Origin: Elsinoe ampelina
Taxonomy: Eukaryota
NCBI GenBank assembly: GCA_010093995.1
Contig: ML992501.1
Span: 1,669,583-1,733,582 of the forward strand
Direction: 5' to 3'
Length of the DNA stretch: 64,000 bases
A program made the translations under genes and the position numbers. Numbering within the stretch: position 1 is the first letter of the stretch; the number at the start of each line of letters is the position of its first letter. The notes beneath the pieces are model-generated. The model saw nothing but the letters and a program-made list of their open reading frames with translations. It searched no databases and had not been told where the DNA came from. This document shows, piece after piece, positions 40,052 through 64,000 of the stretch.

Positions 40052-40922
40052 ATAGCTCCTAAAGTTCCTAAGGAGTAAGTATTATATATAGCACTTACGC
40101 TATGCTAGCGCTAACCTTTTATAGACCTTATAAGAGCGATTTTACTAACTAGAACTAGTACTCTATACTATACTTACGCTACGCTATTACTATTAATAAG
40201 TACCTCTAGCTCGAAGATAGCGTACTCTCTATTAAGGATCCTCTCTACTAGATTACTAAGGCTAAGGCTACCTACTATAATTGTTATAGTTATAGTAATA
40301 GACACTACTACTAGGTATACTCTACGCCTATGCTATACCTACTTTATGCTAACCTTAGTAGCCTACTAAGCTCGACTCTAAGGATTAAGTTACTACTAAG
40401 AAGCTCTAGGACAAATACTTTACTATATATATACTAACCTATAATAACGCTACTACTCCTAAGAAGAACATTATTCTCCTAAAGCGCCGAATTACTACCT
40501 ATACTAACTATATATATAAGAAGGCTAGCGCTAAGCATATATAGAGTAAGTCTAACACTAAGAGTAAGAGTAAGGTAGTTAATAAGAGTAATAGTAATAG
40601 TATAACTTCTTTACGCTATAATAGTACTATTACTATACCCTTTATCTTTAAGGTTAATACTAAGCAGCTAGTAAAGGCGCTATACCTAGGTATAATTAGT
40701 AATACTAGCTTTATACTTAAGGCTTTAGCTAATTATATAAGTCTAGAAGTGCGCCCCTATAACACCTAAGCTATGCTAACTTCCTTATAGGTAGTTACTG
40801 AGAATAAGTAAGCTACTACTACGTAGGCGATTAACAACGCTATAAGGGCGCTAACTAGGCGTATTAACAGTATTAAGGAGAATAATAAGGATAAGAGTAA
40901 GGTAAATAATGTAGATAGTTAA
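40052..40922 (+). pseudogene. C2 antisense accessory gene: Cys6 zinc-cluster-like protein, introns 40075-40124 and 40315-40358
   Basis: Introns GTAAGT...GCTAAC...TAG (50 nt, phase 2) and GTATAC...GCTAAC..TAG (44 nt, phase 0) join three exons in one frame. De-RIPed Cx2Cx21Cx9Cx2Cx6-7C. Confidence 0.65.
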
Positions 40923-42845: not shown

Positions 42846-43047
42846 TATTAAGCGGAAGGCACGTTTAGGGGTAGTATATTGTATAGAACTAATCCGCACA
42901 CTAGTTAGGTAATAGACGAGTTAATTAATTAAGGAGTCTATCTACCGAAAGAAAGAATAGCTATAAATCCCTAAGACTTAGTATTACATAACCTATAGTT
43001 ATATAACCTTCGGGCCTAATTATCTAGAGAGAGCTATATTCTTAACA
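42846..43047. repeat. Solo LTR of a fifth family (E), 202 bp
   Basis: Absent from C1. Flanked by direct repeat CTAGT (42841-42845 / 43048-43052). Ends T[G>A]TTAAG...CTTAACA. Confidence 0.8.
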
Positions 43048-46000
43048 CTAGTTAGGCTTAGAGAAAGGTTTATATAAGTGCTCTTTAGGCGCTACTCTTC
43101 TTACTCTAGAGGCTCTAACTCTTCTTAGTATAGCTATAGCGCTCCTAAGGTAATAGGTAGACTTATAGGCGCTATTCTAGGGGCATACTAGAATTATATA
43201 AGTGCGTTATATTAGGGAGTAGTTTAAGGTATATAAGCTATACTAGCTTTATTACTATCTTCCTAAGCCCTACTAGCCTTAGGTTTCTTGTCTATAATAG
43301 ATATAGTTATAACTCCTTTGCTTTGTATTTATAACGCTTACTCTAAGAGAAGAACTAATATATAGCGCTCTTTCTATATATCTTCTTTATACTTATAGTA
43401 GTTAGGCCTACGTAATAGGCTATTAGCCGGGTTAGTCTTTCTACTATAGTGCTAGATAATAATATTAAACTACGCTAGTACCTTAGCATAGTAGGCCTAG
43501 CGCTATAAAAGCTTCTTAGTAGTTAGGAAATACCTAAGGTTATTATAGTTAGAGAGAACTTTAATCGAGGTAGTAGCGCTAAGTAAGTACTAGCGCTAGT
43601 GCTACGCTGCTTCTATAATAGTAAGAAGCTCTTTGTCGTAGGTAGTGTAGTTTAGTTCTATACCTTATAGCTTCCGGGACTAGAACGCTATAGAGTGCTA
43701 GTGTTATATAGGAGTGTCGCCTTTGTTTTACTAGGAGATTACTCTAGAGAGTATAAAATCTAAAGCGTTAGTCTCGAGCTAGAGGGGCTTACCTAATAAA
43801 AAGTAGTATAGTATAGGCACTTACGTAAAGGCAGCTTTAAGTCTATTAAAAGCCTACGCTACGTTATTACTCTATAGAAATAGGCCTACTTACTTTCCTT
43901 AGACTAACTCTTATATAAGTATAGTTAGTAGTAGTACTACGCGGAAGAAGCCCTTAATAAATTAATAGTAGAAATTAGTAAATCTAAGAAAGGTTTATAA
44001 CTCCTTAAGGCTAGTAGAGGTAGGCTAGTTAGTAATAGCTTATACCCGGGGCTACTCTATTATAACGCTATTACTACTAATAACGTAGCTTAGAAATACT
44101 ACCTATATTATCTTAAAGATATACTTCTTTAGTTTTATATAGAGGCTATTCTTACGTAGGTAGTCTAGTACACTCCTAATAGCTAAGTAATACTCTTACT
44201 TATCGCCGGCGTAGATTAGAATGTCGTCTAGGTATATAATATAGTAGTAGTCTACTAAGCTACTTAAGTACTAATATATATAAGCCTAGAACGTAGCTAG
44301 GGCATTAGTAAGGCTAAAAGGTATAATAGTATATTTAAAGTAGCTATAGTAACAGCGGAATACTGTCTTTTATTTATCGCTATACTAGATATATACTCTA
44401 TAGTAGGTATCTATAAGGTCTAGCTTACTAAATAAGTATATACCCTCGATATAATTAAGTATCTTAGCAATTAGAGGTAAGAGGTAACAGTTCTTAATAG
44501 TAATATTATTTAGCCTATAATAGTTAATATATAGGCGTAGCGAACTATCCTTCTTAAGAACAAATAGAATAGAAGACCCCGTAGAGCTAGTACTATACTA
44601 GAGTCGGCCCGTTACTAAGCTATTATCTATATACTCTTAAAGTACCTAAAGCTCCTTCTCGCTAAGGGAGTAAATAGGTCTCTAGAGTAGCTATTTCCCC
44701 TCTTTAATATTAATAGAGTAAGTAAAACTATTACTTAGTAGCGCTATTACTACGCTCTTATTAAAAACGTCTATATAGTTATTAAGCTAGTATAGTAGAG
44801 TTAGGGCGCTAGGTTCGTCCTAGTATATATATACTAGGTAGAGCTAGGCGTTAGGCTAATTTAGCTCCTAGGAGAAGAAGACATCTAGGATCGACACCTA
44901 TATAGCGCTAGTATAATGCCTCTATATACTAGCGCTCTACTAAATCTTAGAGTTGTAGAATAATAGCTATAGTAGGCCTAATACAAGATTGTAACTAGTT
45001 ATATTAATGCTTTTAAATCGCTAGTATAATACCTACGTTATTTCTTTGCTGTCCTTAATAGTAAAGGCTAACTTAGTATATCTATAGGTAGTTAATTCGT
45101 GTTTGTCTAAGCTACGCACCTAGTATACTACTAGAGAGTTAATAGCGATATAAAAGCGCATAGCAAAATACTAGCTAATAAAGTTACTATCGGCGCTACT
45201 ATCTATTAGAGCTACCTCTTTAATAGGGCCTTTAGGTAGGTTAACTATAATGTCGGTGCGAATTTAGTATATATCCTACATTACGCTAGAGCTACTTAGG
45301 ATTAGTAAATATAAGGACAGTATCCGTTTTAAAGAGTTCTTCTAGGGATAGTTTAGCGCCTAATAGTCTAGGCTCTTATAGATATTATAAGAGTAAGTAG
45401 CGCTAGGTTAGAGAGCTATAGGGGTAGCGTTAGCGCTACTCTACTAGTCCTTTTAGCCCTTATAGTCTTTGTTATAGTAAGGCCTTTTAGCAAAAGTATT
45501 AGTCTTCTCTCTAGTGTTATACTTATACTACCTCTATATAGGGTCGAAGTAGCCTAGTAGGTTCTACTCTAAACGGGATAGATATACTAGAAGTTCTACC
45601 TTAATTAGGGGTAGGTTCCCCTAACGGAGTACTTCTAAGCGTAGCTCTAGTATAGTATAGGCGATAAGCTATATATAGTAAGCATTGTCTAGGAGTAGTA
45701 CTATCTTAATATAGAACCTATAACTATTAAGAAACGTACAGAAATTAGTAATTAACTATTCTCTATACTAGCGCGACGTAAAGAACTTTACTACGTAGCT
45801 ATTACTACAGTTCTTAGAACTCTAGGCTTAGTCCTAAAGCTAGGACTATATTAGGCTCTACGAGGGTATAACGCTAGCGCTCTTAGTATATAAGTCCTAA
45901 TTGTAGCTAAGCTAACCTTTTAAGTAGCTAGTAGCTATATAGCACTAAGTAACTTCTTTAAAGTAGATATTTAGTACTATCTTAAAGACGTTATTATACA

Positions 46001-46799
46001 TATATATAAATTCCTTAACTCTTACTATAATAGTAGACTCTAAGGCCTCGAGGTAGTATAAGTTTAGTATATACTCTCTTACGATTTATAGGTTTATTAG
46101 GTAAATATTGTTAGGTTATATGTTATTAAAACAACTACGTAGTACTAGCGCTACAACTAGGGAGTAACTACTAAGTATATTTTTAAGCTAAGTAATATAA
46201 GTAAGAAGCGCTTTATATATAGTATTATTTCCTATGTCGGCTATGCTTCCTATAGGAGCTATATTAGCGTAGTATAGTCTTAGCACTAGCCCTTCTCTAG
46301 CCTAGTAATCTTTAATAGGGATTGTCTCTAGGGTTATAGCTAATTTAGTAAATGTCTCGCTAATAGCTAATGTTACTATATAGTTAACCGAAGCTTACGT
46401 AGTATAAAGCTTAGCGTATAATATATAACCTAAGATAGCTTTCTATAGCAAATATTATATAACTATGTCTTAATACACTTTTTATTACTAACTATTACAG
46501 TTTATATAACATTTAGTAGCACTAACTTAAGATCTAGTCCTTTAGCTACAACCTATTACTCTAGGTTAGTTAAGCATAAGTTTAACCCTAATCGACCCTA
46601 GAGACTCTACTAACTAGTAGCTATTAAGGGACTATCTACTAGTTGTGTATTATTAGTTATTTTTATTAAGAGCAACCTCTAAGAGGCGTATAGAGTTTAT
46701 TAATAACACCTTTTGTTAAGTCTATTAATAAAACTCTAAGTAACTTATACCTAGTAACTGCTAGGAGCTACTAACCTAGCTTTAATAACTAGTAAGAAG

Positions 46800-49700
46800 G
46801 TAGTATAACCTCTAAGAAGGCAACTCTTAAGTTTATTATTAACTTTCTAAAGGGAAGTATTATAACTACTAGACATCGATTAAGTTCGATTATTAACACT
46901 AGTTAAACCTCTAGAGAATTTACTTAAACTCTCTAACTACTTAGTTGCTTTTGCTAAAAGCGGCCTAGTAAATAGAGTTAATTTAGCCTATAGTTCTACT
47001 CTTCGACTTACGAACCTTCTTATTAAATAGCACCTAATAGTAGTCGAAGGAAATATATAGAGTTATACTTATCTTTATAACTAATATCTATTAGGCTACC
47101 TAGAAGGCTAGTTACATTATAGATTATTGTTAAATATAGCTATTTACACGTATAGAGCATAAGCTACGGCTTATATTAACTAACTTTAAAGCTTAGATAG
47201 TATTTCACCGATAGAACCTCTAACTTAACTACATACTTCGAGCGTAAATAGCGAAGACTCTTAAGTATAGTCTTAGCCTCCGTAGTTAGCGGTAAGACTA
47301 GCGGACACTCCTTAAGAAGCCTATACTAACAATAGTTAAACGTAATAACTAGAGTAACTAGAGTCTCGTCTAGAGACACTATAACCTTTTTAAAGACGCT
47401 TAGCTATTCTATATATACTAGTAAGAGAGAAGCTATAGAAATTAGTTCTATATACTCTAGTCCTAGGGGAATATCCCTAATTAATCTCTAGAGCCTCTAG
47501 ACATTCCGTAAGCAACTCTCCTATACTAATAGTAATACCCGAGTAACTCGACAATATAGTTATGTATATTCTAGACGATTTAACCGGACACTCGAGTGTT
47601 GCGAGCGAATAGCGCACTAAGATAGTTACTCTATCTCGGGCTATGTTATAAGCTCTACCTATAGTAACCTAGATAGTTAAATAACCTCTAGAAGCTAAAA
47701 TTAGAAAGCGATAGTTAAGGGATAACCGCTCCGACGAAATAGTCTCTAATCTTAACTATCTAGGGCACTAACGTAGAATTAGCTATTAAAGGACTATCTC
47801 CTAAAGATTAGTATATATAGTTCTAGAGGAAGATAACCTTTTCGTATTCTTCCCTCGAGCCTAATAACGTACACTAGAGCCTCCTCTATTAGTTAAGCCT
47901 CCTTTAGAGTTTTAATAAGTAGCTATAGAAGAACTCTCTACTGCCTTAAGGTAAGCTTTTTCTATAATAATATAAGCTTAACTTAACGCCCTTTAAGGTT
48001 TTACTTTAAGGATAGTTAAGAACGAACACTATTAAGCTATAGTAGAGACACTTACTACTTAATAGCAACAACGTAATAGGCACTTTAAACGCCTTATAGT
48101 AGCCGGCCTACTCTCCTAGGACGCCTAGGTATAGTAAGAACTAACTAACTAACCTAGCTAAGATTAACTAGTATAAGATTAACTCTAAGTCTATACTAGT
48201 AAAGCTCCTACCCTAGACAATAACGATAGAGGAAACAATTGTTCCTTACTCTATAACGATTGTATCGACTAATACTATTTAGACCGAAACGACTATAGCT
48301 ACGTAGATAACTATAACTACAATAATTAACGCCGCTATAAGAAAAACACTAGGCGGAACTAAGCTTATAACTTATAATAACTAATAGACTAGCGCTATAG
48401 AGAGTTAGATCGCTTCTATTATAACAGCTGTTATAAGAGAAAGAACAAACAATAACGAGCCTAAGGTAACTACTCGGTATACTATAACGTTAATGCCTAA
48501 TATCTAGCTAGTATATACTATACTAACTCTAAAGAGGAGGTAGTTAACTTCTACCGTAACTGTACTAGAGTAGAGACACCTCTAAACAACTATACCTGTC
48601 CCTTAGTTCCGCTACTATCGCCCCCTAGGGATAATAGGCGTAGTAGAGGACGGCGTAATAACTATAGAGAGTATTATAACGACAACTATAACTAAAGAGA
48701 AGACTACCGCTACTACTACGACGCTAACTATAGTAGGCGGAATTGCCTTAACTATTATCTAAATAATTTAGATAATAACTTGTCGACGGATAAAGAAGAT
48801 AACTAATTTACAACTTATAGGCACTACTCCTATAAATTTATCGCTATAGAAATTAAATACTTTAACTCTAACATGTAATCTATAGACTAGAATCTAGTTA
48901 TAACTACTAATAACGCTATAGTTTTTATAAACGTTTATAGCTTTATAGACGTAGTTAAGGATTTTATCGAGTATAACGACTTTTACTTAGTTAGGCACTA
49001 GCTTAACTATTACTTCTAAGGCCGAGCTTATACTTAGTTTATTAACGAGCTTTCTAAGAGCAACTATAGGTAAGTTTATAAGGGCTATAGTATCGAACGT
49101 TAGCGTGACCTCCTTATAACTAAATTTAAGATAGATTTTAGTACTGCCTATAAGCTATTAATAAAGAAGAGGTTTAGTATAGTATAGGTTAATAACTATA
49201 AGAACCTAGCCGACTATATTTATATAGTAGTTAGTCTTACAAGGGATGCCGGTATAGAGTTAGATAAGATAGTACTCCTTTAAGCTTAGTTCGGACTAGA
49301 TCTTAACCTCTAGCTCTATATTACTTGTCCTAACTATAAGACAACTATTAACGCCTTCGTAAGAAAGATAGAATTTGTTCTTCTAACCTAGCGTACTATT
49401 AGTAAGTCTAAGAGCAACTCTTAGTACCTTACTAGATATACTAGACCTAGACAATAGTTCGGACCTAACTGCTAGTAAGGTCGCCCCCTATTTATTCCTA
49501 ATAATAACTAGTATTGTTAGCTATATAGGCCTAACAATAGTAGTACCTATAACAATGCTAGTAGAAGTAACAATTCTAGTAACTATAATAGTTATAATAG
49601 TAACAATTATAGTAGGGGCAACTATATCTCTAAGTTACCTTATGCACTATATAACTAGTAGAACAGATTCTAGAATAACGCCTACGCCCCTTACTAATTC

Positions 49701-52700
49701 TAGTCTAATAGAAGTAGAAATGCTCTAAGGTAGTCTTCTAACTAGAATAACTATAGTTAGAGATATCCGAACTAGGGCAACTAAGGCCTAAGAAGCGGCT
49801 AAGGGCCTAACGGACCTAACTAAGGCCCTTTAAACCCTAGCTAACAATTCCGTAGTCTACTACTAGTAAGCTAGACGACCTACCCTAGGAATAGCTCTAA
49901 TAACAACTCTGCGGCCTATAACCTAAACTATAGGCGTTAGTATACTAACCTAGTAGACATATAGGACGTAGCGTTAAAAACAAAGCTAGAAGTAGGTAGG
50001 CCGACTTCCGCTAATAATATAATTAGTCTAGGACTAGTAGTCGATTACTAGCTAGGCCTAACTCTAGCCTATTTCGAGAGACAAGTAACTAACTATAGTA
50101 TAGACAAAGGGGGCGTAGCTAATCTAAAATAGGTTAACTATAGTTAGAAGAATAAGTATAGGCTAAATAATAGATCTAGAGGACTAGGGAGCTAGGAGTT
50201 TATTAACTACAACGAGGCTAGTAGCTATCCTTAGTATAAGCATAAGATTAATAAATAGTGTTTTAGTTATAATATTACTCTAGTAGAAAGTATAACTACC
50301 TAGTTCTCCGAGTAGAAGCTACTAGACGTTCTAGCGAATATAGACACTAACGTTAGACTACGAGAAATTACTATATAGCTCTACTAGAAGAAATATAAGT
50401 AACTACTAAAGCAACTACGTTACGCGATCGGATAGTAACCCTAAGGGGATACAAATAAAGAGCTAATCGTTAAACTCTAAGACTAGTAGGACATTGCTAG
50501 TTATAGCTTTCGTAGTTAGTACTACCTCTAGGCCTTAGTTAAGTTCTCTAAATAAGGAGAAGAGCGTCTAGTCTACCTCGATATAGGAGCCTTAGGATTC
50601 TATATCGACAAGGACCTAGTAAAGCTTCTTAGGCTAGCCTTATAACTACTTTAACAACTGTTAGAAGTTAAGGGAGTAGTAGGTATAAGAGTAGCTAAAC
50701 ATTTTATTATAGTTCTCCTTTTCCTTCTTAGTTAGAGAAATAGTCTCTATTATAGTCTATAAACTATAATACTATACCTAGTAATACTAAATCTTCCCCT
50801 AGGAATCCTAGTAGAGATAGACATTATTAGACTACTTAGCTTAATAATTAACATACAAGATTAAACCCTCTTAGTGCCTAAGGTAGATAGTTAGCTTATA
50901 GCTATTTAGGTGAACTATAAGTAACTAAAGGAACTCCCGATGCTATTAAGAGCTAGAAAGGTAGTTAAACTACCCCTAAGAACTATAGCTTACGTATAAA
51001 TCTCCTAGGACAACTATAGCGCTCTCGACTAAATTTCCTAGGGAACTAACTAAGGTAACCTTAAGCTTATTCCGAACTAGCATAGATTTAGGAAATCTAA
51101 CTATAACTCCTTAGCTAGAGCTATAACCTACATATGCATTGCTAATGTAAATCTAGAAGGTATATAGGTATATAACGACACTAATGTATTTATTATAATA
51201 CTAGTAAATGCCTAACTTAGAGTCCTACGCCTATATAACTACAATAGAGCGTACTAGGTTAATAAAGACTATACTCTAGAAGCGCTTTTAGGAAAAGAGC
51301 AACTAGAAAGAAATACATAACCTCTCCTAGACTAAGATATTATAGAGGGGCTAGATAAACTACTAATAGTCTAACTAACTACAATAGAGGTAAAGTTACT
51401 AAATAGAATTACGATATACGTAGAAGAACTATAAGTAGTAGCGTAACTTACAGCTCTTATAGAAAAATATAACGAGTTATAGATAAATAAGAGTATAATA
51501 GTTAATCTTCTAGAAAGCGAGAGAATAGAGATACTATTAATTAAAGGCTAGAAAAGAGAGGTATTAACAATATTAACTCGCCTCTACCTACTAAGCGCTC
51601 TAGCTAGACGAGTTATTAATAATACTTTTAACAAACTCTATATAGAAGGTAAGATATAGTTTATAACTTGCCTAACGCCTTTTAGGTTCCTAGTCTTTAT
51701 AGTATAGAAGGACGTCCTAGTTAATAAGAAGCTAGAACGGAAAGGTAGACTAGTAGTTAACATTCGTAGCCTTAATAAGATTAGTTAAAAGGACAGCTAC
51801 CCCGTTCCTTTATAGTTAGACCTAATCGCGGCCCTACGTAGTATAAAGTATATTATAACTATAGATATAGTTATATTCTTCTACTAATAGTTAACTAAGG
51901 AGAGTAAAAGGTATAAGTTTATAGTAAATACTTACTATAGACAAGAGTAATTCCTTATAGCTCTAATAGGTTAGAGTAGTAGTATATAGTACGTCTAATA
52001 GATACTTAATAAGATCCTATAGAAATTATAGCGATTTTGCTAAGCCTATATAGATAATATTATTATTTTTAGTATAACTATTAAGGAATACATAGAACAT
52101 CTAGAACTTGTCTACTTAACCTTACTTATATACCGAATTAGTATTAGCCCTAAAAAGACCTTTATAGGCTACCTATTAGTCTTACTACTCGGCTAATAGA
52201 TGTTAGGCCTAGGTATATCGATATAGGAGAAACGACTAAAAGCTATCCTAGCACTAGAGTTCCTAAAGAACCTAAAAGACCTAGAGCACTACCTTAGGTT
52301 AACTAGATTTATATAGCTGTATATTCCCTACTACGCTTAGATTGTTAAACCGCTATAGAAGAAGAAAACACAACTACTAAAAGTAAGTCTAAGTACTAAA
52401 GGTAACCTATAGAAAAGGTATACGGAAAAAACAATAGTTAAGTAAGACAATAAGAAGACTTATAAGGCCTTTAAGACGCTCTAGAACTAGTTCCGTAACT
52501 GCTTATTCCTACGACACTCTAACTCTAATTAATAATTATATATCGATATAGATACGTCTAGGGTTAGAATTAGAGCACTTATTTACATAGTTAAGGGAGA
52601 CCCTTAACCTATTATAGAGGACAGTAAAGTAATAAAGTTTAAAGCTAAGAACGTAGAACTAGTAATATTCTTAAGTAAGGCCTTAATAGATATAGAGACG

Positions 52701-54698
52701 CGTTACTAGCCTACGGAACTTGAAATAGCTAGACTAGTTTAGGTTGTCTATAAGGTCTACTATATAATTAAAGGCAGTAAAAAGAATATCTTTATCTTTA
52801 CGGACTATTACGCTATAATAGCTATTTTAAAACAATATAGCCTAATAACTACGACTTTAACTAATAAGCTTAACCTTAAATTAGTATACGTAGCTAACTA
52901 CCTATTGTAGTTTAGGCTCGACGTCCGATATAGACTAGGGAGGATATACAAAATCCTAGATGCATTAAGCTAGTTAATATTTAATTCCTTTAAAGAAGAG
53001 ATCGCCGGGGACGTAACTAAGGAGGTTCTCGACTCTTTCTCTTACATATTTTACTCTATACTAGTTAAACTAGATAAAGACTTTAAGAAGGAACTTAAAG
53101 CTAGCCTTTTAAGGGAGAATAGTTAGACAAAGACTCTCGAATCAGTTAAGCTAGCAGAGGAAAAGAGAAGTTAACTAGCTAAAGAATAACCTATAGAAAA
53201 AAACATAGTATAGATTAACTATCCCTTCTTTTAGAAAGACAATTTACTCTATTATAAGGACTCTACGGATAGAAGAGAGAGGTTATGTATTCCGGAGTGC
53301 CTTAAAAAGGAACTATTCTAATAAGCGTACGACAACTGTTTCTATTTAGGCTTTAACTATATATATAACTAACTTATAGTATTCGTATATATAAAGAACC
53401 TAAGTCGTAAGCTTAGAAGGTATATTAGACATTGTTACACTTATTTATTAAACAAGCTACCTCGTTATAAGCCTAATAGTTAACTTTAACCTATTCTAGT
53501 TCTAAATATACCTTACTATATAGTTGTAGCTAATTTTGTTATAGAACTACTAATAACCCTAGATAGTTACGACAAACTAATAATATAAACCTATAAGGTA
53601 AGTAAATGTATCTTATTTATAAAGGGCAGGTTAACTTAGATAGCTATAGAATAGAGCGCGGCCTAGGTTAATTAGATAGAGTAGTATAAGTAGAGGTTTC
53701 CCTTTTAGTTTATCTCTAATAGAGATCTTCTTTTTCTATCGGGATTCTAGAAAGGGGTATTCTACCGAATAGAAGTCTAAATGCTTATAGTAATAGCCTA
53801 GTACCTATAGATAGACAGACAATTAGAAAGGACTAACTAAATAGTAGAGATAGCTATTAGGTACTACTATACCGATTAACTAGAGTCTAGTTAAGATTCC
53901 TGCCTTAACCGATTATAAGCTATAATAAATAATAGCTATAACATAAGTATAAGTATATTACCTAATAAGTACCTCTTTAGGAGCAAACTAAACTTTAATT
54001 TAGTAAACTAATTAGACAGCTTACTAGAGGGAGACTTAGTTACAATAAGACAGCAAAATCGCTAGTTAGTAGAAGATACGCTATGCTTTACACAAATAAT
54101 ATAGAAATAACATTATAACGAGAAACATAAAGACGTTAAGTTTTAACTAGGGGACAAGGTTTATTTAAGGCTCTACTATAGATATAAGGTTCTAGGACAA
54201 TTAAAGAAATTAGACAATTAGTTCGCTAGCTCTTTTACTATCGAACAAAGAGTTAGATATATAGCATACAAGTTAGAAATAATAGGTAGACTAAAAAATG
54301 TCTACCTAGTTATTATAGTTTAATAACTAGAACTAGCGCCGAAAGAGAAAGACCTATATAACTATAAGGTTGCGGACTATACTTAGCTAGGGCTAGTAGA
54401 GACTCCTAACAAGGTTATAGATAATAACGATTCTTATAAAATTAAAGTACTAGTTAATAAACGCGTAGTAATAAGAAAGGGAAAAGCGCATACTTAATAT
54501 TTAGTTAAATAGAAAGGATATAGCCTATAGAACAATATATAGTATAATATTAAAGACTTAAGGGACGTAACTAGCCTTATATAAGACTACGAACGCCGCT
54601 ATCTATACTAAAGACTTGTCGTTAGAGAGTATAGCTACTAAAGACAATAACTAAAATCTAAGTTCGAGCAAAAGGAGTTAGCCTTAGCCGATGCCTAA
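46800..54698 (+). pseudogene. D gag-pol, single frame, RIP-inactivated (ends approximate)
   Basis: One frame carries gag-like EIEYFD...VF.DVY.F.D ~48850, CLDTGA ~50574, FPVFVVW...KGRPVVDIRGLN ~51690-51780, YVDD ~52047, RYWPTELE ~52700, integrase and chromodomain ~54435-54600. Confidence 0.8.
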
Positions 54699-57600
54699 TA
54701 ACCTTACAAATTACGTAATTTACCTTCTAGCTATTCCTAATCTAGACGTGCCTCTCTAGTAGAAATATTAATAAACTTATAATTCTATTACCTTACCTAA
54801 GGAATTATTATTTACAAACCTTAGACATATAACTAGTACTATAATTAAGAAGTATATACTCTCCGAGGAACCTAAATAACTACTACTACCTATAAAGAAG
54901 GCAAAAACGAACCTTACCCTACGAATTACTAGAGCGTAGGCAAAAGCAACTAAAGACTTAAACGAATAAGACATTAAAACGGAACTAGTCGCATAGATAA
55001 GACCTTTAGCTAAGAAGTTACTAACTAAGAAAGGCTTTAAACCTATAACTAGAAGACTAGGACTCTAAAGAGCTAGAGGCTAACATTAAGTAAGGCTAAT
55101 AGTCGAGAGCGAGAGTAGAGCCGACATAGTTATAAAAGTGACAAACGAGTTAAATACTTAAATAGAAACTGCTAATACTAGTAGAGACGAGACAAAATAG
55201 CTACATAATAAAACTAGTTATAAAAAATCTCTATAGAATTTAGTTAATAATGTAACTAAGCTTAACTTAACTAATAGCAAGCTAAACGCACTATATAACT
55301 ATAGGGGATAGTAGGCCGATATACTACGCCTAATATAGAAGAAGAAGCTAGCGGAACTAAAAGTTACTCTATCTTCTACTAGTAAGGACAACTCTATAGA
55401 CCTTTTAGAGGAACTCTAGTTAGTCCTAGAAGCACTAGAAGTTAATAAAGATTTCTTTAACTATAACTACTCTCCGCTTAACTATATACTAATAATAAAA
55501 GGAGTTATAGGTAAAGCTATTACTCTACTTAAGAAGGATTCTAAACTTACTAACCTTCTAAAAGTATTCCGGGCTAGAGCGTCTACCTTGTTAATCTATA
55601 GGGATTAATATAACATCTAGAAACTACTAACCTTAAATAGAGACTTTACTACTAAAGTTCTAGGTTTCCTAACCTAAGCCGATATAAAAAAGACTAAGAG
55701 TAAGAAAGTAGAGATAGACAACTACTAGATATAGGTTAGCAACGAAACACTAGCTAAATAGAGCCTATACCTATTCTTCGTAGGATAATAACTAATAATA
55801 GGCATAACAAGAGACATAATTAGAGTAGCATTTAAGGCCTATAGTTAGGATAAGAAATAATATAAGAAGGTCCTACTTCTTCTCCTAGACGAAGTAGATA
55901 ACCTATAGAAGGCAGTTATAGCTAAGTATATTCTTTAACAACTTAATAAGTAGAATCCCTTAACTAAGGAAAAGAAGCTATATAGCATCCTAAAAATAAT
56001 AAGAGAGAAGTACACTAACCTTCGAGCATAGTAGAACTATAGGAAAGCGAAGGTAGAACTAGAAGAATAGGACTAATCTAATACGTTATAGGAAAAGCCA
56101 ATAGACAATAGAGAGAGAGAAAAGGAAGTTAACCTAAAATAAGCAACTAAAGACATTCTATTAAACTGCCTAGAAGTTAATATCGAAGTTATAGATATAT
56201 TATACTTAGACTAGACTAGCATTAAGAAGTTAAAAGCGATTAAAGAATCTTGTCTAAGTAACATTATTATAGTTAACTATCTTCTTATACTCTATAAGAG
56301 ACTAATATTTAGAAACAATAAGAAGGTATAGGCAAGGTACCTATATATTAATACTTACGCTAATCCCGGAGACCTCCCTACTAAGATATATAATCTACTA
56401 AACTACAACCTAGTAGAGAAACTAGTTAAGATTTATAAAGTTAAGAACTAGGAAAGATTAATTCTAGAGTTCGACTACGACCGAAAGGTAAACTACCTAC
56501 TATTATATCCCCTAGCCTTTGTTATTCTTAACCTCTAGATTAAAGAAATTAGCGAAGCTAGGTTATAGTATCTACTATAAGGCTATAGCGTAGTATACTC
56601 CTAAGTAACTATAAGTACGATTTTTAAATTAACTGCCTAAGAGTATAAGTTATCTAACCTAGTCTTTATCGAGATAGTATAACTTAAAGAGACACTAAAA
56701 GGGTAAAGAGGCCTTATAGATAGCCTTAAGGACCTCGCTACCCTTCTAGGATAGATTAGCCTCCTCGATATAGACGAAGTAAGAAGGTTCTATAATTACT
56801 AGACATAGAAGCTCTACGCTACCTAGAATAAGAACCTATAGTATAACAAGTTAAAACCTATAATAAAGATAATACTCCGACCTAAATTCTCTAAAGGAGA
56901 GTTAATACGTTTTTAAAAGACAGGAACTGTAATAAACTTCTTAGAACAAATCTAGATTAAAGAAGAACTAGCGCTTAATAACAATAGTAGACCCCTCCTA
57001 AAGGTTAACTATTTTAGGCTAGTTATAATTATAATAGAGAAACATATTTCACTTGCTAGCTATTACTAGAGGCTTTCGGTGTATAACAATAACAACGCTA
57101 GTTATATAAACTACTAGTTGTACGTTCTACTCTATAGTTAGGCAAGTTACGCCTACTCTACTTAATTGCTAAACTACTAGAAGGAAGTAGTTAAGGCGTA
57201 TAAAATCGAAGGCGACCTAGACCTACTATTATAAGAAATTATAGAATACTAGACTACTTTACATAAAACAGCAAAGTATTTAATATTCTAAGGATACTCT
57301 AGATACGATACTAAGGTGCCTATATAGCACACGTACGACCTAGTTATATTAATAAAGTTACTAAGAGCTCTAACAAAGAATAACTAAATTAAAAGTAAGT
57401 TTGTCGCGAGATATAACGCTACTAAAGAACAATTAGATAGAGAGCTTAAGGAATTTAAATAATAGGTTATATAACCTTAACTAAAAACCCTTACGTTAAA
57501 GAGTAGGCTAACTAAAACTAAAAGGCGTAAACCTATCGACATAGGCGCTAGCGGTACTCTAACACCCGGTAAGGAAGACAACTAGAAAACTAAATAAGGC

Positions 57601-60282
57601 TATAAGAGGAAGTTAACTAACGTAGGCTAAGGAACCGGCTAGAGCGCTATAGCCGAGGAAAAGAACCTTAAGATCTTTAACACTTTTAGCATAACTAAGA
57701 ATTTCCGAAGTATAAAGTACAATCTTAATAATATTAAGAAGAGTTCTAGTATCGAATATAAAGATTACAACGTAAAGAAATTCTTTAACGCCTTAGTCCC
57801 TAATTTCCCTTTAGCTACGATTCTACTATAGTGCTACTTTAACAGTTTTATACTTAGTTATATAATCCGCTATAAGAATACATTTATAGTTACTAAGTTA
57901 GACTACTATTTCCTTAGAATCTTCGACAAGAATTAACTCCTATGCCTAGACTACCTACTATTTAGGAATCTATACATAGTTAAGAATAAACAACGCTAAT
58001 AAGTTATAGTATTAGCCTATAGAGTTTACCTCCTAAGTAGATCGGAAGTCTAACGTTGCCTCGAGCTTAACCTAGAGAAATATAAATGCTCTAACTCTAT
58101 AGTATAGAACTAGCTACCGTAAGGAACTAACTACTACACTACTTATAAGGCTCTAGCTAGTATTAGGCTATACCCCTCGAAGTTCTAACCTGTTAAATAA
58201 AGCGTCTACGTCCTAATATAACTTTTCCTATAAACTAAGTAGAATGCCTACTACTAAGCGCTCTAAACTAACCTATATAATATTAACACTTATTATCTAA
58301 GTTTTCTAGTGTAGGTAATAAGCTTCTTTAAATAGGAAAAGGATAAATTCATTAATCTACTACTAGAAGTAGTCGAAAGGTAGAAGGGCGAGCTAAAGGC
58401 TATAGTCTAGAGTAATTATAACTCTATCGATCCGATTAACGAGGTAGTAGTATACGGAATAGGGGACTTAGTTAACCCTACACTAGCTCTATAGGATGTC
58501 TACGACGTCCCTACTAAAAGCGCTATTAACAAGATTATTAATTAGTTAGACGTAAATAGCTAAGACTATAAGCTATATAATAGAAATAATTTTAACAAAG
58601 ACAACTACCTAATTATAGATATAACCGATCTTATAAGAGGATCTAGTCTTATCGTAGTTAATAACTAGACTTCTACCGACCTTATAGTATTAAAGAACTA
58701 ACAAATAACTAAGAGCGTCGCTAGGGATACTAAAAACGCTATTATAACCCCGAAACTGAATTTAGAAGAAGAACTAGTACTACGTAAGGTATATAAGTAA
58801 CACAATAAGGAGGATAATTAAGAGGGCCTAGGGGAGATACCTCTAGAGAAACTTAACTAACCTTCGGCACTAGAGAAGCTATAACCTCTATAAAGCTAAA
58901 CTACAATTTAACCTAATAAGATCTAAGAGCTACCCGACGCCTCTATCTACTTAGTAATATAACCTAATAGCACAACTAACATTCCTATAGAGAAGTAACT
59001 AACTCTAAAGAAACTAGAGCGACAACTTAATAATATACTACTACCTAGTACTCTACTACCGTAACTAACTCCCTAGAAGTAACTATTAGCTTAAAACACA
59101 ATCGATCTTACGGGAGAAGAGAGTAATATTAGAGTAACTAAATTAGAGTAGCACGAGTTAAAGAACAATAATAATCTAGAACCTAGACTCTATAAATTTA
59201 AAGTAGCCTTTTAAGAAGCTAGGGAAATAAAACATATTCTAACTAACACCTTAAGCTCTAAACTACAAGATTTCTTCGTTTAATATAGCCTACTAAAACC
59301 TACACCTATAGATGCTACCTAACTAGTACTAGATTATACATTCCTTAATAAAAACTAGACTAGGCTAGCCTTTACTAGTTTTAATTAGCGCAACAGACTA
59401 GAACAACTTTAGAAGCTAGAATAGGAGGCACTAAAGCGACTCTACGAAGACTATAACGACGCTAATAAGTATAGGCCTTCTAAGCGGCAAGTATAAGAGA
59501 AGAACAACCTTTATAAATAGTTTAGCAAGAAAGATTAACTAGTATAAGAGACACTTATATAAAAGAAACTAAGCAAAAGACAACTATTAACGCGAAGATT
59601 ACTAAACAACTAGTATTCTTAGCTAGGCTAGGCGAAACCTCTATCCTAAGCGTAACTATATATATATAGCTATATAATTCTCCGCGAGAATTCGATTTCT
59701 AGATCTACTACGCCGCTATTAGCACTAAAGACAAATAAACTAATCTAACTACTAGCTAGAGAAGAACGTAGTAAACCGACTCCTCCTTAATATAAACACA
59801 TAGAGGAACTACTAGTTATAACACTACTAGGAGCAACTAAGTAGTAGACACGAGATAAGTAACTTAGCAAGAATAAACATTAACTAGAATAAGTTACAGT
59901 AGTTAATCCCTATAACTATAGGACTTATAGGTCGGGCCGAGAAACGAGAAAGTTTAGTGCCTATAGATCGACCTTCTATAACCTCTACTCCTAACCGGTA
60001 CTATATAACTAAATCGTATAAGCTATACTAGACAACGCTATCGAGACTATAGTAGTTGCTACTTACTAAGCCTTAGACGTAAGAGTAAGAGCTATAGGAG
60101 AATAAGTCGTATATAATACATAAGAATACGATATATAGGCACGATACATAAATAAGGTAGTAAGAGTAGTAATAGACACGATAGAGATACTACTAATCGT
60201 AAGAGAGATAATAGAGAATATAGATATAAAGAACAACTAAGAAGCGTTAGGGACGGACAACCGAGACAGTTGTTTAAAGTAG
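54691..60282 (+). pseudogene. D extra ORF (~1,850 codons, unknown function, RIP-inactivated; ends approximate)
   Basis: ATG at 54691. One frame reads as protein-like codons for ~5.6 kb with only TAA/TAG stops and no obvious frameshift. No domain recognised. Confidence 0.6.
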
Positions 60283-62822
60283 ATAGTTAGTAATAGTATT
60301 AAGATAGAGTAGTTAGTTAACAAGGTTGTTAACACTTTTCCTCTAGCTAGGGAATATATTACTATATAGTTAACCGGAGCTTACGTAGCGTAAAGCTTAG
60401 CGTATAATATATAACCTAAGATAGCTTTCTATAGCAAATATTATATAACTATGTCTTAATACACTTTTTATTACTAACTATTACAGTTTATGTAATAGCT
60501 AAGCTATTAGGGAGTTGTCTATACTAGTGCTACTCTAGTAGTAGTTAGTCGTTTCGCTAGCGCTAAGCACGGAGTGCTATCTTGTCTATATAGCTCTATC
60601 TAATAAGATATAAGAGAGATTAGAATTATAACGAAGGTAGAATATTAGAGCTAGAAAGATAAGTATATAGGAGTAGAATAGGTATTATACTAGTGTACTC
60701 TTAATTATTATAAGACTAATCTCTACTCTATCTATTCTATAGGTAAGAAGTGTTTTATTCTTCTATAGAGAATAGTATCTCCGGAGTAAGCTAGCGTAGC
60801 GTACTTACTACGTTAGTCCTTACACCTAATAAGGCAAGATAATAACACTAGCTAAAGCCTTAATATAATAAAGATCTATATATTAAATTACTTTATACTA
60901 GAAGTCTAGATATAAGAAAATAATGTAAGAGTAATAATAGACTTAGGAGCTAACTATAGCTACGTCTCTATAATAGTTACTAATTAGCTTAAACCTTATT
61001 AATATTAGAAGAAGCTACCTTACCTACTTACTATAGTAGATAGAACCCCTATAGAAAAGAATAGAAAAGTTACTTAGGAACTATAAAACGTTATAATTAA
61101 AATTAAAATATATATAGAAAAACAATTAATTAATATAGTAGATATATAGTATAATATAGTACTTAGTATAGACTAGCTTTAATAACACAATCTAGATATA
61201 GACTAAAATAAAGAAACACTTAAATTCCCTAAGTATAATTATAAAATATAGAGAGTATAATTAGCTCTATAGATACTAACTATAAGAATAGTATAGGTAC
61301 AACTAATAGTTAGAGCTATTACTAGCGTAAGTAATTAAGTACTTCTACTAGAATATAAAGACTTTAAGAACTTGTTTAAAGAAAAAGAAAGTATTATAGC
61401 CTTACTCTAATATAAACTATAGAATTACAAAATACCTTTTAAAGAGAGTAAATCTCTAATATACTATTAAGGTCTTATACTACTATTAAAATAAGAGAAG
61501 AATATTCTTAAGAACTATATTAATAAGTACTTACTTAAAGGATTTATATAACTATCTAAATTACCTATTACATATAGAGTGCTTTTTATACCTAAAAAGG
61601 ATAAAATATTATAAATATATATTAATTACTAGAAACTTAATATACTTACTAGGAAGAATTACTATCCTCTACTAAGAATTAACAAACTTTAAGACTAACT
61701 ACTTAGAGCTAAATAGTTTACTATAATTAATATTAGAGATACTTATTATTAAGTATAAATAAAGAAGAGCAAGGAGTAGAAAATAGCTTTTAGAACATAA
61801 TAGAGTTTATATAAGTACCTCGTTATACTCTTTAGGTTAACTAACGCTCCTATAACCTTCTAAGAGTTAATTAATAATACTCTATAAGAATACCTTAATA
61901 ACTTTATCTTAGTATATTTAGATAATATTATTATCTTCTTAAAGATATATAACAAATATATAAAACATATTTATAAAGTACTATAGAAACTAAAAGAGAA
62001 AGACCTACTAGTAAAACTCTCTAAGTATAAGTTCTATAAGTATAAGATATAATTTCTAGGCTATATTATATCTACTAATAGTATTAGACCTAATCTAAAG
62101 AAGATTAAGTTAGTAAATAACTAGCTAGAACCTATAATAGTTAAGGAGGTTTAAGCGCTACTAAAGTTCTTTAACTACTACTATAAGTTTATTAAAAGAT
62201 TCTCTAAGGTAGCTACGCTAATATCTAACCTTACGAAAAAGGAAACTAGCTTTATCTTTAACAAAAAATGTAGGTAGGCCTTTAAGAAGCTAAAGCTTAG
62301 ACTTATAATAGTACCTATCCTAGTACTTTTCGACCTAGATTAGTAAGTACTACTAGAAACAGATGCCTTAGACTTTATAATAGAAGTGTATCTAGCGTAG
62401 AAGGACGTAGAAGAATAACGCTACCTAATTATATACTACTTACAAAAAATAATTAGACCTAAACTTAACTATAATATATATAATAAGGAGTTACTTATAA
62501 TTATAGAAGTATTCTATAAGTAGAGAGTATACCTAGAAGAAACAACCTTACTAGTATAAGTCTATACTAATTATAAGAACCTTCTATATTACATAACAAC
62601 TAAGGTTCTTAATAGATAATAGGTTTAATAGTTAGAAATACTTACGAGCTATAACTTTTAGATCTACTATATTAAGAGATTAAAGAATAGTAGAGTAGAT
62701 GCTCTTAGCTAATAACTAGATTACTTAAAGAATATAATAATAATAGAGGCCTCTATACTAAAGTAGTAAGATAGCGCTTTAGTCTATAAGTACCTAAAGG
62801 TAGAGTAATTATATAGCCTTAC

Positions 62823-64000
62823 TATTACGAACTGTCTAAATATAGCCTACGCGAGTAGTCTAAGCTAAGCTAAGAACGAGATAGTTCTACTTCTATAGTA
62901 GTATAGCACTAAGGTAAGAGTTAGAGAAGGTAGGTCTTATAGATAATAAAGTATAATTAGATAGTATTATAAAGGCTAGCCTTAGTAATACTAGTGTTTA
63001 CTATCTAGACAAGGTTAACTATAGTACTTATATAAGGTAAGGACTATTCCTATATACATGTGTTCTCTATTATATTCTCTATGTGCTCTATATACTCTAT
63101 AGCGAGAGTTAGGAGTAACATAGAGTATATGTCCGCTAGTAACCTATGCACTTTATAGTTTTAGAGGTAGAGCTACTAGAGAAGATAGAGAACTAGGTAA
63201 ATGTCGAGCTAGGTTACATAATAATTTTAGTAGTTTAATTAGTCCTAACGTCTCTATATTCTAGCTATCCTACTAGTTTATAACATTACTCTCCTCCTTT
63301 AATTAAGTTATTCTAACGAGTAAGTATTCTTTCTTATCTTTACGTACTATATACTAAATATGCCTTTTAGTTGTTAAAGGCATAGTAAATCTAGTATATC
63401 TATACGAAAGAATCTCTTAGAGTTTATTAAACTATTTAGAACTAATATACTATAGGCTTATTCTTGTTATAAATTAAAGAGGCTAGACTATAAGGTCTAT
63501 ATTCGGTCGGGTATCTATAGCTAGTATATTATAAGTAACTACTTAAGTTATAATATTTAAGTAATAAAATTAGAATAGTAGTATCTCTAGTCTAAGTATA
63601 TTTATTTACAAAAGGAATTAGTTATAGCTAAGGCTACTAGAAAGAAAGCTAAAGAAGCTTATAAAAAGGCAAAAGAGACTTATTAAAGAGCTATAGGTAA
63701 TAAGCTTTATCTATATAAAGAGATATAGAAATTAAAGAATAAGGCAGAGAAAGTAATCTTTCTAGAGAAGATCTATATTTAAGTCTTAGAGTAGGAGGAA
63801 ATACTATTATTAGTAGATCCCGTCCTACTATAGAACTAGTAATTATTTATACTTAACTCTAATTAGAGTTCCTTATTTAGTAATAATTAAGGTACTTCTT
63901 TTAGCTAAGTAGTCTTCCTTAGATATTCTTGTTTTTGTTTAGTATTAGTAGTATTAGGCCTACCTAGTTAGTTTACTTAGGATAGGTTTTTAGTCTAGTA
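62823..64000 (-). mobile_element. Ty3/Gypsy A3, 3' end, inverted inside A1, truncated by the window edge
   Basis: 463-bp LTR at 62823-63285 is the reverse complement of the A2 LTR, followed by the PPT complement and the A2-like 3' region. Confidence 0.9.
63360..63940 (+). pseudogene. A3 antisense accessory ORF (Zn2Cys6-like plus coiled coil; end approximate)
   Basis: ATG at 63360. De-RIPed ACSRCKSKGLDCKVHVRSGICGQCIVSNCSSCD followed by a coiled-coil-like stretch. Confidence 0.6.

Follow-up and report, generated by a model that had tools for sequence, protein, structure and literature searches.

A RIP-saturated Gypsy chromovirus of Elsinoe ampelina with a long, formerly coding sense-strand region between pol and the 3′ LTR

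A single Ty3/Gypsy chromovirus of 14,127 bp, saturated with RIP mutations and here called element D, occupies positions 46371-60497 of the window (the 64,000-nucleotide stretch of Elsinoe ampelina contig ML992501.1 that was analysed, to which all coordinates refer). The region between its chromodomain and its 3′ LTR, here called the tail, was once coding, on the forward strand and in a single frame. We consider it probable that D is a RIP-inactivated copy of a Gypsy sublineage that carries a large, fast-evolving accessory gene (ORF3), and that 54691-60282 is the wreck of that gene; the copy in D is non-functional. On the best reading of the evidence, the tail represents neither an env-like nor an antisense gene, nor a nested transposon. 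The anatomy of the element is as follows (position, strand, feature):

46366-46370, no strand: target-site duplication, left copy, GCTAA (read directly)
46371-46511, +: 5′ LTR, 141 bp, TGTTAC...ATAACA (96% identity to the 3′ copy)
46512-48650, +: long region 5′ of the gag homology (leader or N-terminal extension), of uncertain coding state
46514-46522, +: PBS-like TAGTAGCAC, apparently a RIP-changed TGGTAGC
48651-51386, +: gag and protease region (frame: coordinate mod 3 = 0)
51387-54650, +: pol (sub-threshold Pfam matches; alignment to Gypsy polyproteins)
51738-52169, +: RT
52455-52841, +: RNase H
53289-53456, +: integrase zinc finger
54150-54320, +: SH3
about 54435-54602, +: chromodomain (motif ...YLVKxKGY...)
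54691-60282, +: probable ORF3 relic, RIP-degraded (frame: coordinate mod 3 = 1)
59098-59121, +: TIDLTGEE, a SUMO-interaction-motif-like peptide in the tail frame
60345-60356, +: PPT-like AGCTAGGGAATA, directly 5′ of the 3′ LTR (read directly)
60357-60497, +: 3′ LTR, 141 bp (96% identity to the 5′ copy)
60498-60502, no strand: target-site duplication, right copy, GCTAA (read directly)

The matching LTRs and GCTAA duplication described in the initial annotation were confirmed. The two LTRs lie in direct orientation, are identical at 96% over 140 nt, and have ancestral termini TGTTAC...GTAACA, with one RIP-type change per end: the 3′ copy starts TATTAC and ends GTAATA, and the 5′ copy ends ATAACA. 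Positions 46360 and 60493 meet in one DNA contig, with 10 ambiguous letters; this junction is of empty-site size, but its shorter side is only 24 letters. Since the LTR pair and GCTAA enclose the tail, the earlier claim that the 5.6 kb after pol moved as part of D also stands, as does the view that nothing is nested inside it: the tail contains no inner LTR pair, terminal inverted repeat (TIR) or poly(A), no second RT, no endonuclease and no transposase. The only repeats it has lie in AT-rich DNA and are 18-41 nt long and 64-90% identical, and tandem arrays are absent.

Nor is the tail peculiar to this copy, an outcome that the initial annotation had thought would count against its proposal if reversed. 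In sequencing runs X1 and X2, which represent one DNA sample, five tail segments (56527-56783, 57993-58270, 58604-58862, 59545-59848, and 59838-60097) have counterparts in diverged contigs that differ at 12-25 places per 257-304 nt. The differences are nearly all transitions (1,544 transition versus 30 transversion places in X1). Summed depth in the tail (460-880) is similar to that in pol (783-1,174), with exact-match contigs at about 120-155; read depth is not copy number. Depth suggests that tail and pol are linked in the other D copies; no contig crosses the junction in a variant copy.

Assignment of D to the chromoviruses follows from its LTR pair with target-site duplication, its domain order (gag, protease, RT, RNase H, integrase), and a chromodomain after the integrase. 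The gag homology (48849-49622) matches residues 66-328 of protein P0002 at E 2e-10 (BLASTP), a protease-like LDIGALG is found at 50568-50597, and the gag and protease region has a period-3 z of 15.7. With stops read as X, pol yields the Pfam order RVT_1, RT_RNaseH, Integrase_H2C2, SH3_Tf2-1, all scoring below the curated cut-offs because of RIP; Pfam Chromo was not among the matches at E <= 0.01. Against Gypsy polyproteins carrying PF00385, pol aligns at E 1e-140, collinearly, over 95% of the query and as far as 54593. In 81 of 147 aligned cases, a pol stop of D lies opposite Q (34), W (25) or R (22), and the stops are therefore RIP products. The leader upstream of the gag homology is 2.1 kb, making the element long at its 5′ end too; it has a period-3 z of 5.8 with mixed frames (46512-48650) and no match in the sequences of the relatives described below.

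The tail frame (mod 3 = 1) holds 144 stops, all TAA or TAG, in 1,864 codons, as compared to 235 and 250 in the other forward frames, and has the fewest stops of the three from 54771 to about 59500. The earlier observation that the tail reads in one frame with only RIP-type stops is true but uninformative: RIP has removed TG, so that TGA occurs only 0-2 times in each of the six frames, and an antisense frame has 140 stops. Codon periodicity, the check proposed at that time, was more telling. Period-3 power in the tail reached z = 19.5 relative to 200 dinucleotide shuffles (12.6 for pol); the two main parts gave 12.4 and 9.1, with 0 of 200 shuffles close. Purine fractions at codon positions 1/2/3 are.614/.527/.515 in the tail and.595/.528/.532 in the pol sense frame. 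A codon table trained on gag-pol chose the tail frame in most 450-nt windows between 54912 and 58662, and one trained on pol scored it at -3.72 per codon, as compared to -3.76 for the held-out gag-PR and -3.82 to -3.96 for the other five tail frames. The coding phase is unchanged across about 4 kb. Tail and pol are also alike in their longest stop-free run (62 versus 55 aa), stop frequency (7.7% versus 7.2%), and composition. Between about 58.7 and 59.9 kb the signal is weak, and the stretch 59501-60356 has a period-3 z of only 1.6. This leaves about 1,300 codons with good support, the roughly 1,850 codons originally assigned to the ORF being an upper bound. Purine/pyrimidine periodicity thus outlasts RIP and reveals a former coding strand (here +) when homology is gone, which gives it a practical use in annotating RIP-rich isochores.

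The nearest relatives of D are three metagenome loci, two of which (L012 and L013) are one element. The pol of D scores highest against L011 (646 bits) and L012/L013 (621), followed by L016 (560). In a tree of 25 rows, D, L011 and L012/L013 fall on one side of a branch with an SH-aLRT of 99; the branch leading to D is long (1.83) and compositionally odd. L012 is a complete element of 12,391 bp, with 122-nt LTRs (99% identity), the target duplication GCGAG, a 1.9-kb leader, a gag-pol frame that opens 1.5 kb upstream of the gag homology, and a 4.8-kb tail with a sense frame of 1,502 codons and 2 internal stops. It has TGGTAGC at the same offset after the LTR as the PBS-like site of D, and AGGGGGGAT directly before the 3′ LTR, matching the place of the PPT-like site. 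D and L011/L012 have in common short LTRs (141 versus 122 bp) starting TGT[CT]AC, a 5-bp target duplication, a TGGTAGC-type PBS, a G-rich PPT, a leader of roughly 2 kb, and a tail of at least 4.8 kb with a sense ORF, which in the relatives is 1,194-1,502 codons long and in a different frame from pol. Unlike D, L011 and L012 are not RIP-mutated (GC about 58%), and the D tail (5.6 kb) is longer than that of L012 by 0.9 kb.

In D, as in L010, L011 and L012/L013, the interval from chromodomain to 3′ LTR holds a sense ORF. That of L011 has at least 1,194 codons and zero stops before it runs off the contig, with conserved residues upstream of the first ATG of the frame; L010 has an ORF of 511 aa after pol, which follows directly on the pol stop and keeps the frame of pol. 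The ORF3s of L012 and L011 match at E 8e-10 over 106 aa, with a second collinear patch at E 0.005, and the L010 ORF matches both of these, at E 1e-6 and 2e-5. Common to all of them is a single conserved block, about 80-110 aa long (L[DE]D.[DN]V ... P..F...G ... LCG), an HMM of which matched only its own three source elements, or 4 of 51 loci. Identity between L011 and L012 is about 30% in the ORF3 patches and 55.6% in full gag-pol.

Judged against Pfam, the PDB and the ESM Atlas, the relatives' ORF3s appear to be orphans. Neither a Pfam domain nor a PDB match was found in them, transmembrane segments are absent, and P0025, an un-mutated ORF3, gave no usable match in the ESM Atlas. AlphaFold2 on P0025 residues 40-720 with a two-row alignment gave a pLDDT of 36.3, only long coiled-coil helices exceeding 70. 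A single sub-threshold Pfam match to PAM2 was found in L011 (E 0.084; PAM2-like LNPTAPVFTP) and none in P0024 or the D tail; we regard it as no more than a lead. A search of viral contigs found no relatives of ORF3 and was uninformative, because the pol control likewise found nothing.

Comparison of the D tail to these ORF3s detected no similarity. The best BLASTP matches had E values of 1.5 and 5.7, hhalign gave a probability of 0.1, and tblastn against all 51 loci reached E 0.22 at best. In no frame of the window did the core-block HMM give a match at E <= 10, and a RIP-tolerant pattern of the block had none in D. Alignment in purine/pyrimidine codons gave z values of 0 to 1, from a method that is insensitive, since it also missed the known match between the L011 and L012 ORF3s (z -0.7). 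The missing core block makes it less probable that the D tail belongs to this ORF3 family, though RIP and fast divergence could hide the block in D. Homology of the D tail to ORF3 is argued from position, strand, size and phylogeny; it cannot be shown by sequence.

Wider searches were equally empty, in line with the earlier remark that the tail has no recognised domain. Pfam gave no family at E <= 1 in six tail frames; phmmer found no match for residues 200-1340 among 1.84 billion representatives; word-based searches found none for the tail among proteins of 1,025-3,262 aa, nor for its C-terminal third among proteins of <1,025 aa; and PDB sequences gave none at E <= 10. The best tblastx match in the rest of the window had an E value of 0.14, and no tail frame matched any of 22 Gypsy polyproteins. 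A match to a known nested TE protein, which had been named as evidence against the original proposal, was found in none of the Pfam, phmmer or Gypsy polyprotein searches. Pol served as a sensitivity control: equally RIP-mutated, it still reaches Gypsy polyproteins at E 1e-140.

These results bear on the most serious rival to the ORF3 reading, namely that the tail is unrelated to the relatives' ORF3 and represents a transduced host gene, or an old nested insertion without ends, that was amplified with D. Its lack of similarity to P0024, P0025 and P0026, the missing core block, and the extra 0.9 kb relative to L012 are all as this explanation would have it, and transduced genes are usually sense-oriented according to a passage of PMC7264820. 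Against it, pol is recognised at E 1e-140 although equally mutated, so that conservation in a transposase, RT or host gene ought to have been visible as well, yet Pfam in six frames, phmmer and both word-based searches were empty; there are no TIRs, inner LTRs, poly(A), or matches to the 22 polyproteins; and the nearest relatives have an ORF at exactly the same place. ORF3 diverges so fast (about 30% identity in patches, against 56% for gag-pol) that one would expect the signal to be lost after RIP. We consider an unrelated origin rather unlikely.

The alternative that the minus strand was coding, as in brtn of Boty or the ORFs of plant Retand, Grande and RIRE2, would make the tail an instance of the sole post-pol gene type reported for fungal Gypsy elements in passages of PMC7264820 and PMC8365987. 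The minus frame with 140 stops (versus 144) also has the fewest in several 600-nt windows, but few minus stops follow from a sense frame poor in TAN codons. Read antisense, the tail has purine fractions of.47/.39 at positions 1/2, unlike all sense frames measured (.58-.62 at position 1), and a codon-table score of -3.96, the worst of six frames. The + strand is A-rich (AT skew about +0.2) and the relatives' ORF3s are in sense, which together leave antisense coding very improbable.

Equally improbable is an env-like membrane glycoprotein, with D as an endogenous retrovirus-like element, although position and sense orientation are as in env and in the plant env-like extra ORFs described in PMC7264820. 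A Kyte-Doolittle scan found no convincing hydrophobic segment, in keeping with the earlier failure to see a clear signal peptide or TM segment: one 19-residue window of the tail reaches 1.86 but holds charged residues, soluble pol after RIP has three windows as hydrophobic, and the un-mutated ORF3s reach maxima of only 1.45 and 0.93. There is no signal-peptide-like start, and Pfam found no env family. Lastly, that the tail is non-coding filler in an expanded pol-to-LTR spacer, as its 144 stops, lack of homologues and aperiodic stretch at 59501-60356 might suggest, is hardly credible given the period-3 z of 19.5 overall (12.4 and 9.1 in the main parts), a phase constant over about 4 kb, and no tandem arrays.

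The ORF3 reading can be set out as a layout and a tentative mode of expression. This unusual sublineage would combine short LTRs of about 120-140 bp and a leader of roughly 2 kb with some 2,000 codons of gag-pol and, between pol and the 3′ LTR, a sense ORF3 of very large size. ORF3 would be transcribed within the genomic RNA of the element and probably translated via a spliced or subgenomic message, frameshift or re-initiation, since its frame differs from that of pol and the conserved residues in L011 precede the first ATG. The protein would be soluble rather than a membrane glycoprotein, would consist largely of coiled coil or disordered sequence apart from a small conserved core, and would evolve much faster than gag-pol; for a protein of this kind, the most likely role would be that of an accessory protein binding host factors in RNA handling, nuclear steps or counter-defence. 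For tail residues 401-920 by themselves, AlphaFold2 returned a pLDDT of 35.5. Two sequencing runs taken to be RNA (X3 and X6) yielded 0 contigs on this stretch, a result that carries no information on expression. The large non-gag/pol protein in the env position that was originally proposed is upheld in that the tail was sense, in one frame, and part of D. The word cargo is probably wrong: a post-pol ORF with a common core block in at least three different relatives points to an accessory gene at the level of the lineage rather than a capture by D.

A bolder version, which we offer as a doubtful speculation, is that D is the RIP-caught copy of a fungal-type chromovirus lineage with a giant domain-less accessory hub of 0.5 to about 1.8 thousand residues. 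Soluble and largely disordered, this hub might dock host factors by short motifs, like a retroviral accessory gene, and might protect or promote the RNA of the element or counter host genome defence. Candidate motifs would be the PAM2-like LNPTAPVFTP of L011 and the IDLT-type SUMO-binding-like peptide of D.

The additional genes of LTR retrotransposons supplied the raw material for the rise of retroviruses. To our knowledge, catalogues of them are good for plants and some animals and almost lacking for fungi; the antisense brtn of Boty was the only fungal case found in the literature searched. This gene follows pol in Boty/BcGypsy1 of Botrytis (PMC8365987, citing Zhao et al. 2011; PMC7264820); the title of the cited paper calls it antisense, unlike the ORF of D, which is in sense. 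Plant LTR retrotransposons such as Bagy2 and the Athila group carry extra sense env-like ORFs in most family copies, named for their transmembrane domains and with splicing proposed for their expression (PMC7264820). D resembles these in having a sense ORF at the env position; its ORF is unlike them in showing no TM, in being several times larger, and in belonging to a chromodomain-bearing fungal-type element. Retand has an enlarged pol-to-LTR region as D does (2.9-6.6 kb, PMC11963269; 5.7 kb in D), yet is a non-chromovirus with antisense extra ORFs that carry TRP28 and often with tandem repeats, none of which holds for D. Bdelloid rotifer LTR retrotransposons have captured extra ORFs beyond gag-pol (PMC5408684); these animal elements resemble D in having additional ORFs. 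Our finding points to a Gypsy sublineage whose sense ORF3 is domain-less, has one small conserved core, and diverges very fast. Dead as it is, the copy in D guided us to relatives that are intact or nearly so (L011, L012, L010) and open to functional testing.

One short motif in the tail may be added. SUMO-interacting motifs (SIMs) follow the consensus [VI]-x-[VI]-[VI] or have an IDLT-type core, followed by acidic residues. The TIDLTGEE that had been noticed near 59100 was located in the tail frame (its IDLTGEE at 59101-59121) and, as a short motif in mutated sequence, has no statistical weight. Generic SIM-like motifs number 8 in the tail and 0 in gag-pol, in sequences whose acidic and hydrophobic residues are distorted by RIP.

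The stretch after the chromodomain (54691-60282, here the tail) is part of a transposed unit, a RIP-mutated chromodomain Ty3/Gypsy element designated D.

Element D in the window
46371-60497, + strand: element D, 14,127 bp, delimited by an LTR pair and a target duplication

The initial annotation had drawn D as one element with 141-bp LTRs and a GCTAA target site duplication, and so it proved. The two 141-bp LTRs were 96% identical across 140 nt, with ancestral ends TGTTAC...GTAACA; at every end, one copy or the other shows a single RIP-type change. GCTAA flanked D on both sides. A PBS-like sequence, TAGTAGCAC, was located three bases downstream of the 5' LTR, and a purine-rich tract preceded the 3' LTR. 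One DNA contig of the sample joined 46360 to 60493 (10 ambiguous letters), as expected if the site were empty and retained one GCTAA; with a shorter side of 24 letters and highly repeated flanks, it hints at such a site.

RIP indices over 46510-60282 were extreme (TpA/ApT 2.1-2.2; (CpA+TpG)/(ApC+GpT) 0.22-0.24) when compared with those of the gene region (0.73 and 1.12). A Pfam scan in the frame of pol (coordinate mod 3 = 0, stops read as X) returned sub-threshold matches in Gypsy order: RT, RNase H, integrase zinc finger, and SH3. The 1,001-residue pol stretch matched Gypsy polyproteins of 1.9-2.4 thousand residues at E 1e-140 (32% identity, 95% coverage), a control demonstrating that RIP of this degree leaves conserved proteins recognizable. 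All top polyprotein matches contained the chromodomain and stopped 60-150 residues past it. Gag homology was picked up from about 48850, and alignment of pol extended to 54593; D thus reaches 2.1 kb upstream of gag without a match, and a further 5.7 kb beyond the chromodomain. The former (46512-48650) exhibited moderate period-3 (z 5.8) without a single clear frame. In L012, a complete metagenomic relative, the gag-pol frame begins about 1.5 kb 5' of gag homology; given both observations, the lineage seems to carry a long N-terminal gag extension. Within gag (48200-49900), stops were extremely dense in one + frame (31-37 per 150 codons), and the sense frame was N/Y/S-rich and of low complexity and included a short tandem array (49532-49614); this stretch is the counterpart of a Q/P/G-rich linker in the gag of the relatives.

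The tail had been read as a single + frame (coordinate mod 3 = 1) with only RIP-type stops. The single frame stands, on the codon table and purine profile described below, but the argument from stops does not: the proposed frame contained 144 stops in 1,864 codons, one antisense frame contained 140, and RIP had turned TG into TA throughout, leaving no more than two TGA codons in any of the six frames (0-2), so that the type of stop carries no weight. Since RIP makes only transitions, three measures that it can neither produce nor abolish were chosen: period-3, the purine profile, and a codon table. Period-3 power of the tail was z = 19.5 against 200 dinucleotide-preserving shuffles (12.4 and 9.1 for its two main parts, only 1.6 for the final 0.85 kb), compared with 12.6 for pol and 15.7 for gag-protease. 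Purine fractions by codon position were.614/.527/.515 in the proposed frame and.595/.528/.532 in the sense frame of pol; on the minus strand, the tail gave.47 and.39 at positions 1 and 2, matching no coding frame measured here. A codon table was trained on D's own pol, with gag-protease held out as a test. The proposed frame was the best of six at -3.72 per codon (held-out gag-protease, -3.76; other five tail frames, -3.82 to -3.96). In 450-nt windows it was best nearly unbroken over 54912-58662; the preference blurred at 58.7-59.9 kb and resumed at 59.9-60.3 kb. Tail and pol were alike in composition, in stop density (7.7% vs 7.2%), and in longest stop-free run (62 vs 55 residues). The former identity of the stop codons is revealed in pol, where 81 of 147 aligned stops lay opposite Q, W, or R of relatives. 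The tail is a former sense-strand coding region in a single frame, now dead. About 1,300 codons of the roughly 1,850 originally proposed are secure, and the full length is possible, clarity being lost at 58.7-59.9 kb. The IDLT-type peptide reported earlier (TIDLTGEE) is present at 59098-59121 but, as a short motif in mutated sequence, was given no weight.

The evidence speaks against a nested insert or second element as the source of the tail, already discounted in the initial annotation. Neither an inner LTR pair nor terminal inverted repeats, tandem arrays, or poly(A) were present in the tail, and it resembled neither the rest of the window nor, in any frame, 22 Gypsy polyproteins; six-frame translation matched no Pfam family at E ≤ 1, and three large protein searches and the PDB yielded no match. 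The earlier reading of a large non-gag/pol protein after the chromodomain, with no recognizable domain, was essentially right.

Other copies were sought by placing contigs from two DNA runs of one sample on D at a likeness of at least 80%. Summed depth was roughly even along D; in one run (X1) it was 783-1,174 over pol and 460-880 over the tail, with exact-match contigs at about 120-155. Several tail segments were covered by diverged contigs (12-25 differences per 257-304 positions), and variant places in X1 comprised 1,544 transitions and 30 transversions. Together these observations indicate several RIP-diverged tail copies in the genome, at about the abundance of pol. Tail and pol are probably linked in those copies, judging from depth, which is not copy number; no variant contig crossed a junction.

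A profile built from 16 relatives recovered 51 loci on metagenome contigs. The pol of D scored best against L011 (646 bits) and L012/L013 (one element in two records; 621), then L016 (560). In a maximum-likelihood tree of D and the 24 loci covering at least 80% of pol (the other 27, being shorter, were excluded), D clustered with L011 and L012/L013 (SH-aLRT 99), a placement to be read with caution given D's long (1.83) and compositionally deviant branch.

Features of L012
Whole element: complete, 12,391 bp; LTRs of 122 nt, 99% identity, TGTCAC...TGTGTCA
Insertion and priming sites: TSD GCGAG; primer-binding site TGGTAGC; G-rich polypurine tract
Gag-pol: one frame, with 1.9 kb upstream of gag homology
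ORF3 (the ORF between pol and the 3' LTR): in a frame other than that of gag-pol; 1,502 codons, two internal stops, ending 185 nt 5' of the 3' LTR

In L011, pol was followed by 1,194 stop-free codons in a frame continuing past the contig end, far in excess of chance (by our own arithmetic, about 3.5% stops are expected at its GC). Ten loci had a usable LTR pair around gag-pol, after three contig-end pairs overlapping the match were dropped; their tails measured 123, 128, 156, 160, 201, 398, 753, 1,711 (L010), 2,295 (L018), and 4,765 nt (L012). The 2.3-kb spacer of L018 (8348-10644) looked degraded and AT-rich, with a longest open frame of at most 179 codons, and is possibly a decayed ORF3. DNA flanking L012 (16868-18031, - strand) encodes a T5orf172/MUG113-domain protein (Pfam E 3e-15).

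The ORF3 proteins of L012 (P0024) and L011 (P0025) had in common a 106-residue block (E 8e-10, 31% identity) and, collinear with it, another patch (E 0.005). Their gag-pol was 55.6% identical over 2,287 aligned residues; ORF3 thus diverges much faster. The same block was found in the 511-residue post-pol ORF of L010 (P0026; E 1e-6 and 2e-5). L010 falls in the second main branch of the tree, and post-pol ORFs bearing this core therefore predate the D/L011/L012 group. In L011, L012, and D, ORF3 lies in a frame other than that of pol, whereas in L010 (6606-8144) it occupies pol's own frame directly past the pol stop, the layout expected for stop-codon read-through. Conserved ORF3 residues in L011 lie upstream of the frame's first ATG, hinting at production by splicing, frameshifting, or a non-AUG start.

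No Pfam family was detected in any of the three ORF3s at E ≤ 0.01, the PDB had no relative of P0024 or P0025, and the ESM Atlas no usable neighbour for P0025. Neither P0024 nor P0025 had a computed hydrophobic segment able to span a membrane, and AlphaFold2 was confident for P0025 residues 40-720 solely in long coiled-coil helices. Residues 1137-1146 of P0025 (L011 11708-11737) read LNPTAPVFTP, a PAM2-like sequence (Pfam PF07145, E 0.084, sub-threshold), and L010 ORF3 contains the loosely similar ...TKPVFNF.... The PAM2 motif binds poly(A)-binding protein.

The tail of D resembled these ORF3s by neither BLASTP nor hhalign profile comparison, matched none of the 51 loci by tblastn, and contained nothing recognized by an HMM of the core block or by a RIP-tolerant pattern. 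It was also unlike them in a purine/pyrimidine-codon alignment, a method that found gag homology (z 11, 26) but missed the known L011-L012 ORF3 match. Such loss of signal is expected, because un-mutated ORF3s are 30% identical where pol is 56% identical, and the pol of D retains 35-37% identity to that of L011 and L012 after RIP. The putative homology of the tail to ORF3 is based on shared position, strand, and size and on phylogeny, not on a sequence match.

D is a fossil LTR retrotransposon with an additional ORF, itself a known category. Plant elements offer well-documented cases of extra ORFs located between pol and the 3' LTR; the sense ORFs among them are named env-like for their transmembrane domains, and antisense ORFs occur in Grande, RIRE2, and Retand (PMC7264820). 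In Retand, the region from pol to the LTR spans 2.9-6.6 kb and carries TRP28 ORFs in antisense (PMC11963269). The sole non-plant example given in the sections covered is an antisense ORF carried by Boty in Botrytis and Sclerotinia (PMC7264820, PMC8365987), and the portion covered of a fungal LTR element survey mentions only "complex transposons" arising from multiple insertions (PMC3248453). In full-text literature outside subscription journals, our search turned up no account of any fungal chromovirus with a large ORF3 in sense, which does not prove absence. We suggest that ORF3 is an accessory protein of D's Gypsy sublineage, perhaps translated from element RNA that has been processed or recoded. 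An envelope protein is improbable; the product would be soluble and largely coiled-coil or disordered, and may act via contacts with host factors. What makes the fossil copy of the window interesting is its lineage, together with the intact relatives to which it led.

Two further RIP-mutated Gypsy elements, mutually opposite in orientation, adjoin D: one at 40000-46370 (- strand; RT, RNase H, SH3, and Chromo) and one at 60498-64000 (+ strand; RT and RNase H). In the DNA runs, contigs on these two elements summed to a depth of 8,000-104,000 compared with about 500-1,600 for D (10 to 100 times), so the two represent far more abundant families. GC content was 49-53% in the first 5 kb of the window, the gene region, and 22-35% over the remaining 59 kb, with a sharp isochore boundary at about 5000, where it fell to 30%. 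The sole clearly intact gene among those inspected in the window lies in the GC-normal part, an open 341-codon frame (974-1999, + strand) encoding an alpha/beta hydrolase (Pfam Abhydrolase_1, E 5e-26).
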